Of a stretch of 64,000 nt of DNA, positions 20,158 through 58,958 are shown in pieces. Position 1 is the stretch's first letter. Every line of letters begins with the position of its first letter. Source of the DNA: Candidatus Woesearchaeota archaeon (lineage in GTDB: Archaea > Nanobdellota > Nanobdellia > SCGC-AAA011-G17 > JACPIM01); the NCBI GenBank assembly GCA_964513145.1, contig CAZELK010000003.1:1-64000 (forward strand), read 5' to 3'. Under the pieces are notes generated by a model, which saw only the letters and a list, made by a program, of their open reading frames with translations, was not told the origin of the DNA and searched no databases. A program made the translations under genes and the position numbers.

Positions 20158-21154
20158 ATGCAAGATTTATTGCCTTTTGAAAAAATTGAAAGAGAAGTTG
20201 TAATTAGAAAGGAAGCAGAAACAAACCCTGAATTTGGTTGCAAGCCTGAAAATAGATCGGCTGAACAATTAATTCATTATGGAATCGTGAATATAAACAA
20301 ACCTGAAGGGCCCACGAGCCATCAAATCTCGGATTATGTTCAGAAGATTTTGGGGATTAATAAATCCGGACACAGCGGAACCTTAGCGAAATAATTTTCG
20401 AGGATATCCCGGTGTGACTGGTTGCTTGCCTGTTGCTTTAGATAAAGCTACAAGGATAGTTCAAACTTTATTATCTGCCGGGAAAGAATATGTGGGAATA
20501 ATGCATTTACATAAAGAAATTCCAATTAAAGAAATTGAAACTAATTTTAAAGAATTTATAGGGAAAATAATGCAGTTGCCCCCAAGAAAAAGTGCTGTTA
20601 AAAGACAAATAAGACAAAGAGAAATTTACTATTTTAATATTTTAGAAATAAATGAACAAGACATTTTGTTTAGAGTCGGATGCCAGGCAGGAACTTACAT
20701 TAGAAAACTTACCTCTGATTTCGGGAAGAGATTAAATATTGGGGCTCATATGGCTGAATTGATAAGGACAAAAGCAGGACCCTTTAAAATTGAAGATTCT
20801 TTTACTTTACATGACTTAAAAGATGCTTTCTCCTTATATAAAAGTGAAAAAAATGAAACTGATATAAGGAAAATAATATTACCTATTGAAAAAGCAGTTG
20901 ATCATTTGAATAAAATCTGGGTTAATGACAGAACTGTTAATAATTTGTGCCATGGTTCTGATTTATTTTCCCCAGGGGTTGCAAAGTTACATAAAAACAT
21001 TGACAAAAATGAATTAGTAGCTATAATGACATTAAAGAATGAATTAATTTGTTTAGGTGAAACTGAAATTAATTTTGAAAACATAATGAAGAAAGAAAAA
21101 GGATTAATTGCTAAAACCAAAAAGGTGTTTATGGAAAGAAATACATATCAATAA
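20158..21154 (+). CDS. cbf5: H/ACA pseudouridine synthase Cbf5, interrupted by a 19-nt intron (exons 20158-20386 and 20406-21154; 325 aa spliced)
   Basis: NKPEGPTSHQ, GHSGTL|DPGVTGCLP after splicing, KEYV, QLPPRKSAVKR, GTYIRKL, PUA domain; 229+749=978 nt, in frame. Confidence 0.93.
20387..20405 (+). other. BHB mRNA intron in cbf5 (19 nt)
   Basis: GGAA-CCUU-AG|C-GAAA-UAAU-UUUC-GAGG-AU|A-UCCC; excision joins G+AU to make the catalytic Asp codon and removes an in-frame TAA. Confidence 0.9.
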
Positions 21155-53620: not shown

Positions 53621-53643
53621 CATAGGTAATTGGCTTGTATTTT
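53621..53643. other. 23S pre-rRNA terminal/processing stem, 3' arm
   Basis: 22/23 inverted repeat of 57047-57069. Confidence 0.75.
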
Positions 53644-53932
53644 ATTTTTGGGCTATTAGTAACTGCAAGCTGAATACGTCGCCGAAGCTTCGTACTTACA
53701 CTTCAGTCCTATCAAACTCATGTTCTTTGAGCGCCCTATATCTCTTTTCAAGTATAGCTTCCTCCTTAGATGCTTTCAGGAGTTATCTATTAGAGCGTAG
53801 CTGCTCGGCCTGCCTTGTCAGACAACCGATACACCAGAGGCTCCGAATCATTGTTCCTCTCGTACTAAATGATCCTTACCTTCAGATATTAAGCACTTCC
53901 AGTAGATATAATCCAAACTGTCTCACAACGTT

Positions 53933-54016
53933 ATGTTAAACGGGAGGAATTGAACCTCGCTTCGGCAAATACATAGAGATGTTTTAATTTGCTTATGTAT
54001 TTGCTTACAACCGTTG
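53933..54016 (-). other. 23S BHB intron, about E. coli 2588/2589 (84 nt)
   Basis: GUUA-AG|C-AACGG...CCGUU-UAAC-AU|A; spliced GGGUUAAGAACGUUGUGAGAC. Confidence 0.88.
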
Positions 54017-54070
54017 CTTAACCCAGCTCACGAACCATTTTAATGGGTGAACACCCCCACCCTTGGCTGC

Positions 54071-54256
54071 CTACAGTTCGAAGGACAATTCGTGAAAATA
54101 GTTTTCCTTAAAGTCAAAATATTAGTGATTAATTTAATATAGTTCTAAATAGTTCTCAAATTAACATACTAATTTTTAGACTTCTAAGTAATAGATATCG
54201 GAAATAAAAGACATTTTGACTTGAAAAACTATTGTTCGTATGATTGTCCTTCGACA
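54071..54256 (-). other. 23S BHB intron, about E. coli 2534/2535 (186 nt)
   Basis: GCAG-AA|U-G UCGAAGGACAAU...AUUGUCCUUCGA A-CUGU-AG|G-CAGCC; spliced GGCUGUGCAGAAGCAGCC; long hairpin, no recognisable protein ORF. Confidence 0.85.
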
Positions 54257-54269
54257 TTCTGCACAGCCA

Positions 54270-54301
54270 CTATATTGATACAAGAATTAACTTTATATCA
54301 T
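54270..54301 (-). other. 23S BHB intron, about E. coli 2521/2522 (32 nt)
   Basis: AUAU-CC|A-UGAUA...UAUCA-AUAU-AG|U; spliced CCAUAUCCUGGCUG. Confidence 0.88.
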
Positions 54302-54373
54302 GGATATGGTGAGCCGACGTCGAAGTAGCAAACAGCGCCATCGATATGAGCTCTTAGGCGCTACGACTCAGTT

Positions 54374-54410
54374 CTAGGGATCTAAGAGAAAATTTTTGAT
54401 CTCTAAGATT
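54374..54410 (-). other. 23S BHB intron, about E. coli 2449/2450 (37 nt)
   Basis: GGGG-AU|A-AUCU...AGAU-CCCU-AG|A; spliced GGGGAUAACUGAG. Confidence 0.85.
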
Positions 54411-54914
54411 ATCCCCGAGATAGCTTTTCTGTCATACCTAGCCCCTATTAATAAGGACATAGGGGTTCGCTAGACCAGACTTTCGTCTCTGGATTTTTTA
54501 ATAGTCAAAATCCAGTCAGGCCAACTTTTGCTCTTGCACTCTTCAGAAGATTTCCAAACTTCTTGAGTTGACCTTAGGGCCCTGTTGATATCTTTTCAAC
54601 AGGGTGCCGCCCCAGCCAAACTGTCCAACTGCTGCTGTCCCAACTTTCGTTGGTAAGTAACATAAATTCTACAGAGTGGTATTTCAATTTTGTCTATCCT
54701 TAACCTAGCAGCTAAGGCATAGCGACTACCACCTATACTACACAGTAGAACATATATCACAACAACAGTCTACAGTAAAGTTCTACGGGGTCTTTTCTTC
54801 CCGCTGGAAGTCTCTGGCCTGCACACCAGAAGGGTATTTTCAGTGGATACTAACTAGGGACAGTGCGGATCTCGTTACGCCATTCATGCGCGTCGTCATT
54901 CAAACGACAAGGTA

Positions 54915-55053
54915 CAACGATATCATTAATCTCATTTCTCAGATTCAACTTTTCAGTTCAAAATGTGAAAGATATTTTTTGTTTAACAAACCCAAGGCAA
55001 TTCTCTTAGATGAATGGCTTTTTCATCAAAATCTATAGCGAGATTAATGATAA
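54915..55053 (-). other. 23S BHB intron, about E. coli 1938/1939 (139 nt)
   Basis: GCGA-AA|U-UAUCAUUAAUCUC...GAGAUUAAUGAUA-UCGU-UG|U-ACCU; spliced GUAGCGAAAUACCUUGUCG. Confidence 0.9.
54939..55029 (-). ncRNA. Candidate intron-encoded box C/D guide RNA
   Basis: UGAUGA (55023-55028), 13-nt spacer ending in GCCAUUCAU (antisense to 23S exon 54879-54887), CUAA (55006-55009), CUGA at 54953 and 54939. Confidence 0.45.
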
Positions 55054-55079
55054 TTTCGCTACCTTAAGAGAATTATAGT

Positions 55080-55111
55080 CTAGAATTGTTAAAGATTTTT
55101 CTTACAACAAA
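55080..55111 (-). other. 23S BHB intron, about E. coli 1912/1913 in the H69 loop (32 nt)
   Basis: GGAA-UA|U-UUGUU...AACAA-UUCU-AG|A; spliced GGGAAUAACUAUAAUUCUC. Confidence 0.88.
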
Positions 55112-55903
55112 TATTCCCGCCGTTTACAAGTCCTTAGCCTCCTTGAAAAGAGGTTTTAGATACTTGCACTGGGCAGACGTCACGTCTCATACACATCATT
55201 GCTGACTTGCGAGACGTTACGTTTTTGTTAAACAGTCGGACCCGCCTAGTCACTGCGCCCTGTAATTGCAGTTAGAAACTACAACCGCAGGGATTCCTTC
55301 TACCAAAGGTACGGAACTAAATTGCCGATTTCCCTTAGCTAGTTTACACCATCATACCTTAGGCTTCTCACCTAGAGTACCTGTGTTGGTTCTGGGTATA
55401 ATTATTCAAGATCCTTTTTAATTTCATTTTCACGGACTCCAGGCATCAACCAAATGGACCATAAGGTCCACTATTCTTAAAATTAATCAAGTTCTCACCA
55501 TTACGGTACTTCCTTGATTTGTTTTAATTAACATCCAAGACAATAGATGTTGGCTTAGCCCAAAATGTCTGAAACTAAACTTGTGTTACCACGCGTACTT
55601 GAATAGTAAAGGAATATTAACCTTTTTCCCATTCCCTAAGACCTATTAGGCCTTTGGTTAGGATTAACTTACTCTTAGCTGATTTGCATTGCTAAGAAAC
55701 CCTTACTCTTACGGTATCAGGGAGTCTTACCCTGTATTGCTCCTACTACTACCAGGATTCTCATTTTTATTAGGTCCACTATTTCTTTCGAAAAAGCTTC
55801 TACCCTAACAAAGCGCCTACCTACCACATAAGTTCTTTACTTAGTCTATAGTATCGGTAACTGATTTAGCCCCGTCCATCTTCAGGGCATATAACCTTGA
55901 CAG

Positions 55904-55946
<43 letters not shown>

Positions 55947-57132
55947 TACCTCCCTGCTGTCTCTGGTTATACACGCCTTTTACCCTTTAACACTTAATCA
56001 GTATTTAGGGACCTTAACTATAGTCTGGGTTGTTCCCCTCTCGCGATATAAGCTTAACCCACATCGCTTTTTCCTAAGGTCTCAGATGACAAAATATTCG
56101 GAGTTGGACGAAGAGGGGAGGAATTTCTTCCCCTTACCCCTAAATCCGTAGCTCTACAATTTTATCTATCTCACTTAAGACTAGACTGAGGCCTATTTCG
56201 GTAGGAACCAGCTATAACCAGTCTCGATTGGCTTTTCACCCCTAATCTAAGGTTATACAAACAGATTTACACTAGAACTGCTTCAGGCCTCCACAAGGTT
56301 TTACCCCTGCTTCACCTTACCCTAGAATAGATCGACTGGATTCGGGTAGCATCCAAGTGACTATAGGCACTTTCATACCTAACCCCTCCTTGAAAAGTGT
56401 GGGTTTTTGGTTTCCCTTCAAGTTCAAACTGAAAAGTTTTTACTTTCGCCACTTAAATGCACTCCCTGGCTCGTTATTCGAAACGCACGATACAACTCCG
56501 AAGAGCAGTATCATTCTGTATTCATTAGGTTTCAGGATCTTTTCACTCCATGTTAAAGGTTCTTTTCAACTTTCCTTCGCAGTACTCTTTGCTATCGGTC
56601 TCAAGTTATATTTAGAGTTGGAAGTTAATAGCTCCCACATTCACACCCCATATCCGAGGAGTGCTACTCTGGATACCTCGCAAGTCTATTAATCTGCTCT
56701 ACAGGACTATCACCTTCTATGATGTCTTTTTCCAAAGAACTTTGAGCAGAATTAATTAAGATCAAAAGCAAGGTCCAAACACTACATTTCTATTTTATTT
56801 CTAAAATAGATTCAGTTTGCTCTATGTCGTTTTTTCTCGCTGATACTCACGACATCTATTTGATTTCTTTTCCTCCAGGTACTAAGACGTTTCAATTCCC
56901 CAGGTTCCCAATCTTTTCAGATTTAATGAGAAGTCTCATTCAGAAATCTCCAGTTCACAAGTTGCATGCACTTCGCTGGAGCTTATCACAGCTTGCCATG
57001 TCCTTCTTCGGAACTTGAGCCAAGTCATCCACCTAATGAAGTAGGAAAAATACAGGCCAATTACCTATGCACGGAACTATATAAAAATAATTCCCTTGAC
57101 CCAAAAAAATTTCTTTTTCTGAGCTGCATTTT

Positions 57133-57413: not shown

Positions 57414-58958
<1,545 letters not shown>

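Follow-up and report, generated by a model that had tools for sequence, protein, structure and literature searches.

How does an archaeon obtain a working Cbf5 when its only cbf5 gene is broken within the codon for the catalytic aspartate? The question is raised by a 64,000-nucleotide window (the whole stretch analysed, from contig CAZELK010000003.1), which represents contig 3 of an 18-contig, 0.98-Mb draft assembly with 29% G+C and a completeness of 98.8%. A preliminary description, made from the DNA letters, had placed the host among DPANN archaea, and its relatives agree with this, since members of the same genus and the same family are deposited as Candidatus Woesearchaeota archaeon (e.g. 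RIFCSPHIGHO2_02_FULL_29_19 and NC_groundwater_568). The split gene is the sole cbf5 of the genome. We conclude, with a probability of about 0.9, that the 19-nucleotide insert dividing it is a genuine archaeal intron of the tRNA type, a bulge-helix-bulge (BHB) intron, in the cbf5 pre-mRNA. BHB introns are cleaved by the endonuclease EndA, and their exons are ligated by RtcB.

The split gene and the fold at its break

The gene spans positions 20158-21154 of the plus strand and is divided by the 19 nucleotides at 20387-20405 into two open reading frames (ORFs). The first, opening at the ATG at 20158, reads MQDLL...INKSGHSGTL and then only Ala-Lys before a TAA stop, two codons on as the preliminary description had it. 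The second, from 20408, begins PGVTGCLPVALDK and stays open to the stop at 21152-21154. When 20387-20405 are deleted, the G at 20386 is joined to the AT at 20406-20407, and a 978-nucleotide ORF for 325 residues results that contains GHSGTLDPGVTG; our recomputation gave the same product as had been described. The predicted junction-spanning peptide region of the spliced protein is SGHSGTLDPGVTGCLPVALDK, and a deletion displaced by a single base would put tyrosine in place of the aspartate.

Domain matches abut at the break. In Pfam, the first piece carries DKCLD (7e-16) and the second TruB_N, TruB_C_2 and PUA, while the NCBIfam Cbf5 model NF003280 is matched by exon 1 over positions 2-66 and by exon 2 over positions 68-314 (321 bits). 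The single model position absent between the two matches is the catalytic aspartate. The hallmarks of a Cbf5/TruB-family pseudouridine synthase are all found, namely DKCLD, TruB_N, TruB_C_2, PUA and the catalytic aspartate in GxxGTLDP, the last of these present only once the predicted splicing is done. Comparison with relatives gives ratios of nonsynonymous to synonymous substitution (dN/dS) of 0.08-0.28 for exon 1 and 0.12-0.20 for exon 2, with dS near saturation, and these values point to purifying selection on both exons.

The RNA around the break can be folded into the full BHB that the preliminary description proposed, and both its geometry and its cut sites proved canonical (Table 1). 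Two 3-nucleotide bulges lie on opposite strands with a 4-bp helix between them and the helices h and h' on either side; the outer helix comprises eight pairs and two mismatches (A.C and G.G). Cleavage is predicted after the second base in each bulge, exactly where it restores the aspartate codon.

Table 1. Predicted parts of the split cbf5 gene and of its BHB fold, in window coordinates
Feature	Position	Strand	Description
cbf5 exon 1	20158..20386	+	76 codons and first base (G) of the catalytic Asp codon; DKCLD 7e-16
Putative BHB intron, 19 nt (CGAAAUAAUUUUCGAGGAU)	20387..20405	+	phase 1 in Asp codon; unspliced frame stops at TAA 20392-20394
cbf5 exon 2	20406..21154	+	AT of Asp codon, 248 codons, stop; TruB_N, TruB_C_2, PUA
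Outer helix, 5' strand (CACAGCGGAA, exon 1)	20371..20380	+	pairs with 20407-20416
Central 4-bp helix, 5' strand (CCUU; Thr and Leu codons of exon 1)	20381..20384	+	pairs with 20400-20403
5' bulge AG/C	20385..20387	+	predicted cut between 20386 and 20387
Inner hairpin GAAA-UAAU-UUUC (intron)	20388..20399	+	helix GAAA/UUUC, loop UAAU
Central helix, 3' strand (GAGG, intron)	20400..20403	+	pairs with 20381-20384
3' bulge AU/A	20404..20406	+	predicted cut between 20405 and 20406
Outer helix, 3' strand (UCCCGGUGUG, exon 2)	20407..20416	+	pairs with 20371-20380

Inserts at the same nucleotide in related archaea

The break recurs in relatives. A search with the Cbf5 model in 40 related genomes found it at model positions 66-68 in several, and reading of the DNA revealed inserts at the same nucleotide, both in-frame and out-of-frame, in 14 of the 40. 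The order was then covered by a pattern (GGNACNYTNG, a gap of 10-40 nucleotides, then ATCCNNNNGTNNNNGG), which matched 50 of 240 genomes against 2 for a reversed-pattern control. Three of the 50 matches are false, two lacking the cbf5 motif and one lying in a genome with an intact cbf5. The survey of Woesearchaeales proposed in the preliminary description thus yields same-site inserts at the aspartate codon in 47 of the 240 genomes, about a fifth, from at least 15 of 29 families. Matches in G100, G204 and G357 (loci L157-L159) were dropped as lying outside the cbf5 motif, as was one in G036, which lies elsewhere on a contig and whose genome has an intact cbf5; further false matches in the surveys of the class and of the Aenigmatarchaeota and Asgard phyla were removed by eye. 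Among 331 high-quality genomes from the rest of the class, there are 5 carriers.

The loci fetched from these genomes provide 55 distinct introns of 12-29 nucleotides, all of which leave G...AT on removal. The 5' bulge is AG/N or UG/N in every one of them (the slash marking the predicted cut), and the 3' bulge is AA/A or AU/A in 52. Some inserts are in-frame, at 12, 15, 18 or 21 nucleotides; most of these contain stops, and the same BHB is kept. In some relatives with introns of 12-14 nucleotides, the BHB is of a relaxed form that lacks the inner helix. When the exon borders serve as anchors for the structure counts, the bases of the central helix pair in 220 of 220 cells, and up to six pair types occur per position: the second pair of this helix is seen as CG, UA, AU, GC, UG and GU, and its third as UA or CG. 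Pairing extends to the outer helix, whose four inner pairs are present in 96% of cells, and to the inner helix, whose first pair is present in 95% of relatives, again with six pair types. Covariation scores 0.452. Shuffles score 0.214, with none of 500 reaching the observed value, and displacing the partner strand by one, two or three columns lowers the score to 0.04-0.14.

Exon codons next to the insert differ between carriers and non-carriers. Comparing only genes found without the pattern, 20 with the intron and 95 without, we observe GGG for glycine in 17 of the carriers against 7 of the non-carriers, CCY for proline in 19 against 45, and GAT for aspartate in all 20 against 65. These sequence counts indicate that the exon codons are adapted to the outer helix. 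Conserved pairing together with fitted codons is what selection for recognition by the endonuclease would produce.

Two further phyla were searched with a slightly looser pattern, and because false matches were frequent there, we rely on verified carriers. In the phylum of a genome deposited as Aenigmatarchaeota (locus L099), about 7 of 151 genomes look like carriers; four genes, verified by fetching (L171-L174), have introns of 12-30 nucleotides at the same nucleotide. In the phylum of a genome deposited as Promethearchaeota, an Asgard lineage (locus L103), about 11 of 151 genomes look like carriers, and eight genes were verified (L161-L168), with introns of 26-35 nucleotides, all four central pairs and strong inner helices; one of them lies on a 3.58-Mb contig. 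As judged from these sequences, the cbf5 intron is more widespread than the preliminary description supposed, reaching Aenigmatarchaeota and Asgard genomes.

Other interruptions of cbf5 also came to light. Some relatives have an insert of about 19-22 nucleotides at a second site, between GP(T) and SHQ, 25 codons upstream of the catalytic aspartate (loci L029, L034, L125, L126, L140, L149, L085 and L107, one carrier being deposited as Aenigmatarchaeota), and some genomes, such as G008, have inserts at both sites. The insert of L125, the one checked by hand, shows BHB-like pairing. In the window, the corresponding site (20298-20315) is intact. A member of the same order, G039, has an intein in its cbf5 (L037:453-2960, plus strand) between TruB_N and TruB_C_2, with Intein_splicing (5e-15) and the homing-endonuclease domain LAGLIDADG_3 (7e-12), and its aspartate codon is intact.

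Alternative readings of the insert

Self-splicing is rejected, as group I and II introns are far longer than 19 nucleotides. Of the other readings, the least unlikely, itself very improbable, is that the gene is a pseudogene or was disabled by a 19-nucleotide insertion in a reduced genome to which Cbf5 is dispensable. DPANN genomes have lost many functions, and such an account would agree both with the stop two codons past the insertion point and with the failure to detect Gar1. The genome gives no match to the Gar1 model, which also missed one of four archaeal control genomes, so this is weak evidence; Nop10, a partner of Cbf5, is encoded (G000:C5:50790-50933). A dead gene would hardly keep both exons open and conserved at dN/dS values of 0.08-0.28. 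Nor would it explain why the insert never varies in its nucleotide position, in leaving G...AT or in pairing with the exon, why exon codons are fitted to the helix, or why the feature persists in at least 15 families and three phyla.

Less probable again is a gap crossed at translation, by bypassing or frameshifting, or a pair of ORFs expressed as two separate polypeptides. There is precedent for the former in phage T4 gene 60, where tens of nucleotides are bypassed in translation, and the latter could make use of the GTG start that gene callers find for exon 2. The aspartate codon is split 1+2, however, and neither arrangement can supply the residue. The in-frame inserts of 12, 15, 18 and 21 nucleotides, most with stops, keep the same BHB, and the structural constraints are those of endonuclease recognition.

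Least probable of all is an assembly or sequencing artefact, conceivable in a draft of 18 contigs, as independent assemblies (RIFCSP, NC_groundwater, marine and other metagenome-assembled genomes) have inserts of differing sequence and length at the same nucleotide, and covariation with the exon is not expected of an error. Taken together, the structure, codon and selection results from relatives exclude both a pseudogene and an assembly error.

Several observations pull the other way and temper confidence in a BHB intron. Firstly, the minimum free energy fold (-15.0 kcal/mol) is not the canonical BHB (-12.5 to -13.5 kcal/mol), from which it departs only in having C20387-G20400 in place of U20384.G20400; the fold energy of this single copy does not differ significantly from that of shuffled sequence (z = -1.31), and the A.C mismatch of the outer helix is absent from most relatives. 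Secondly, the survey pattern (GGNACNYTNG...ATCC) itself prescribes some of the exon context and passes over GAC variants, and the compared genomes are kin, which makes counts and Fisher tests look more independent than they are; kinship does not affect how many different pair types occur. Thirdly, searches for traces of splicing came back empty. The junction pattern, allowed a gap of 0-25 nucleotides, matched no metagenome contig in spliced or unspliced form; in the protein database, the full-length relative closest to exon 2 reaches 80% identity and none attains 90%; and the 120 closest relatives include no near-identical (>90%) pair of spliced and unspliced proteins. Finally, the rtcB gene of the host is itself interrupted, as described below. 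The significance of the locus rests on the exact restoration of frame and motif and on the relatives; the fold of a single copy proves little.

The same database bears on annotation, which the preliminary description had expected to go wrong here, and it does. The window gene is present only as a 246-residue exon-2 product (P0003), gene callers find a GTG start for exon 2, and 29 of the 120 closest Cbf5 entries (P0003-P0122) are shorter than 290 residues (217-272). Most of these short entries start at the VTG downstream of the aspartate codon or a few residues beyond it; others start about 30 residues further downstream, and one starts upstream of the aspartate. Because gene callers truncate split genes, Cbf5 is mis-annotated in many metagenome-assembled DPANN and Asgard genomes.

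Splicing machinery, known introns and origin

Under the intron reading, the exon sequences flanking the catalytic aspartate codon would pair in the transcript as the outer helix, and exon 1 would pair with the 3' end of the intron as the central 4-bp helix, presenting the two 3-nucleotide bulges. EndA would cut after the second base of each, that is, after 20386 and after 20405, and RtcB would join the exons, forming the codon G+AU and an mRNA for the 325-residue Cbf5. Since the unspliced mRNA would yield only a 78-residue fragment, active Cbf5 would depend on the tRNA-splicing machinery. Cleavage and ligation in vivo, and any regulatory role, are inferred.

The genome encodes one EndA of 188 residues (G000:C7:33755-34318), with no paralogue at E <= 1 in an assembly that is 98.8% complete. 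Among solved structures it best matches the homotetrameric enzyme of M. jannaschii (1A79, 1.5e-34) and, from N. equitans, the catalytic subunit of the endonuclease, and the Tyr, His and Lys taken as the catalytic triad are conserved in the alignment. By these matches the enzyme is most likely of the homotetrameric (alpha4) type. RtcB is encoded outside the window (G000:C6:75419-78150, plus strand), in a gene with three inserts: an in-frame one of 33 nucleotides with a stop after MPDGHWG, a frame-shifting one after ISPGG, and an in-frame one of about 1.4 kb after DINC that is intein-like, with a weak Intein_splicing match (34 bits, cut-off 35.8). With rtcB interrupted in this way, a supply of ligase is something we infer. 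ARAGORN, run with its intron option, finds only 15 tRNA genes in the whole genome, nine of which it predicts to contain introns, and the window has none of the 15. Non-canonical introns presumably conceal many more. This intron load fits a genome that leans heavily on its splicing machinery. Within the window, the match to large-subunit rRNA (53636-57056, minus strand) extends over 3421 nucleotides against a model of 2987 positions, and that to small-subunit rRNA (57415-58958, minus strand) over 1544 against 1478; the large-subunit rRNA probably carries one or more insertions or introns.

The closest known counterpart is the crenarchaeal cbf5 intron, which the preliminary description had named. 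It lies between the first and second base of the catalytic aspartate codon, the nucleotide interrupted here, and is described only from Desulfurococcales and Sulfolobales, with lengths of 16-44 bp and a mostly unconventional BHB (Yokobori 2009, PMC2738675; see also Watanabe 2002 and Yoshinari 2006 as cited there). Its splicing was demonstrated by complementary DNA and in vitro cleavage. Nanoarchaeum equitans is without it (PMC2738675). Gene, site, phase and mechanism are as in this known case, including cuts between the second and third bulge residues. Both introns are short (12-29 nucleotides in the order and class surveyed here), leaving no room for a homing enzyme, and both show lineage-specific presence and absence. 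What differs is the lineage, the motif and the endonuclease. The host is a mesophilic DPANN archaeon, its nearest relatives coming from groundwater, rather than a hyperthermophile; its BHB has the canonical form (3-4-3, flanked by helices on both sides), the relaxed form prevailing in Crenarchaeota; and splicing, experimentally seen in the crenarchaeal case, is predicted here from sequence. An association of such introns with a hetero-oligomeric (alpha-beta)2 endonuclease and a relaxed BHB has been proposed (Yoshinari 2006, Yokobori 2009). That link fails here because the genome has a single alpha4-like EndA of about 188 residues and no beta subunit, not an (alpha-beta)2 enzyme.

Two other comparisons are instructive. 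With the canonical BHB introns of pre-tRNAs (hBHBh'), the cbf5 insert shares two 3-nucleotide bulges, the 4-bp helix between them and the flanking helices, but it sits in a protein-coding mRNA, where one strand of the outer and of the central helix is constrained by codons and the codons have adapted. Haloferax volcanii HVO_1309 likewise has a BHB intron in an mRNA, processed there by the tRNA splicing endonuclease (PMC7714728); that intron lies in the 5' untranslated region, whereas here a codon is interrupted and removal is needed to make the protein. A 2020 paper gives the crenarchaeal cbf5 intron as the only further BHB intron reported. In the full-text literature searched, cbf5 is the only archaeal protein-coding sequence reported with a BHB intron, and that literature holds no report of a cbf5 intron in DPANN or Woesearchaeota, in keeping with the novelty claimed in the preliminary description, and none of BHB introns in protein-coding genes of Asgard archaea.

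How the intron came to this site was approached through the Cbf5 phylogeny that the preliminary description had suggested, which revealed grouping by phylum and a patchy intron distribution. In the FastTree tree, Asgard Cbf5 proteins group together and Aenigmatarchaeota carriers adjoin intron-less Aenigmatarchaeota, so that this tree gives no sign of whole-gene cbf5 transfer between phyla. Within Nanoarchaeia, intron-bearing genes are clustered (29 changes against 44.7 in shuffles), and well-supported branches force at least 16 state changes, with species of the same genus differing; the tree is a weak one of a single short protein, with sampling that favoured carriers, and it does not tell gains from losses. 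On this evidence, the intron has been gained or lost often within Nanoarchaeia.

We give an even chance to a hot spot, at which the intron was gained independently time and again or to which it spread laterally. Most of the outer helix is supplied by the conserved G-T-L-D-P codons (GGN ACN YUN GAY CCN), which would favour the site: with GGNA/UCCN already encoded, and the exon context partly self-complementary through amino-acid constraint, a short hairpin with a tail complementary to CNYU would make a cleavable BHB. The patchy distribution, in which sister taxa differ, and the wide variation in length (12-35 nucleotides) and interior agree with this, and a recent preprint reportedly finds repeated tRNA intron gains in Asgard archaea. 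Recurrent gain has no known insertion mechanism, however. The window intron is unique in its own genome at up to three mismatches, which excludes its being a copy of a dispersed repeat there, and the site is not fully pre-formed, because intron-less genes rarely have the GGG and CCY codons that complete the helix.

A tentative alternative, which we place somewhat below even, is a single old intron that was passed down vertically within Woesearchaeales at least, and perhaps from far deeper in Archaea, and was precisely lost many times. It would explain the shared nucleotide and phase in Nanoarchaeota, Aenigmatarchaeota, Asgard genomes and Crenarchaeota, the nearly identical introns (agtaaaa(a)tcagagaa) in different families, the clustering on the Cbf5 tree and, in the FastTree tree, the grouping of Cbf5 proteins by phylum. 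The forced changes within Nanoarchaeia, down to species of one genus, count against it, as do the few carriers (5 of 331) in the class outside the order and intron interiors that share nothing between phyla beyond the needs of pairing; precise loss would also need a cDNA-like route. An unlikely extension of common descent holds that a single ancient mRNA intron predates the split of DPANN, Asgard and TACK archaea and has been retained over billions of years because it gates active Cbf5 on the activity of EndA and RtcB. If this were true, the cbf5 intron would be a conserved post-transcriptional checkpoint, not a neutral passenger.

In practical terms, split cbf5 genes are routinely mis-called in public data. 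Hundreds of genomes are now available for testing an ancient intron against a hot spot. For the biology of these archaea, the locus suggests that the splicing of mRNA by tRNA-processing enzymes is no peculiarity of Crenarchaeota, and that its proposed dependence on endonucleases of relaxed specificity does not hold here.

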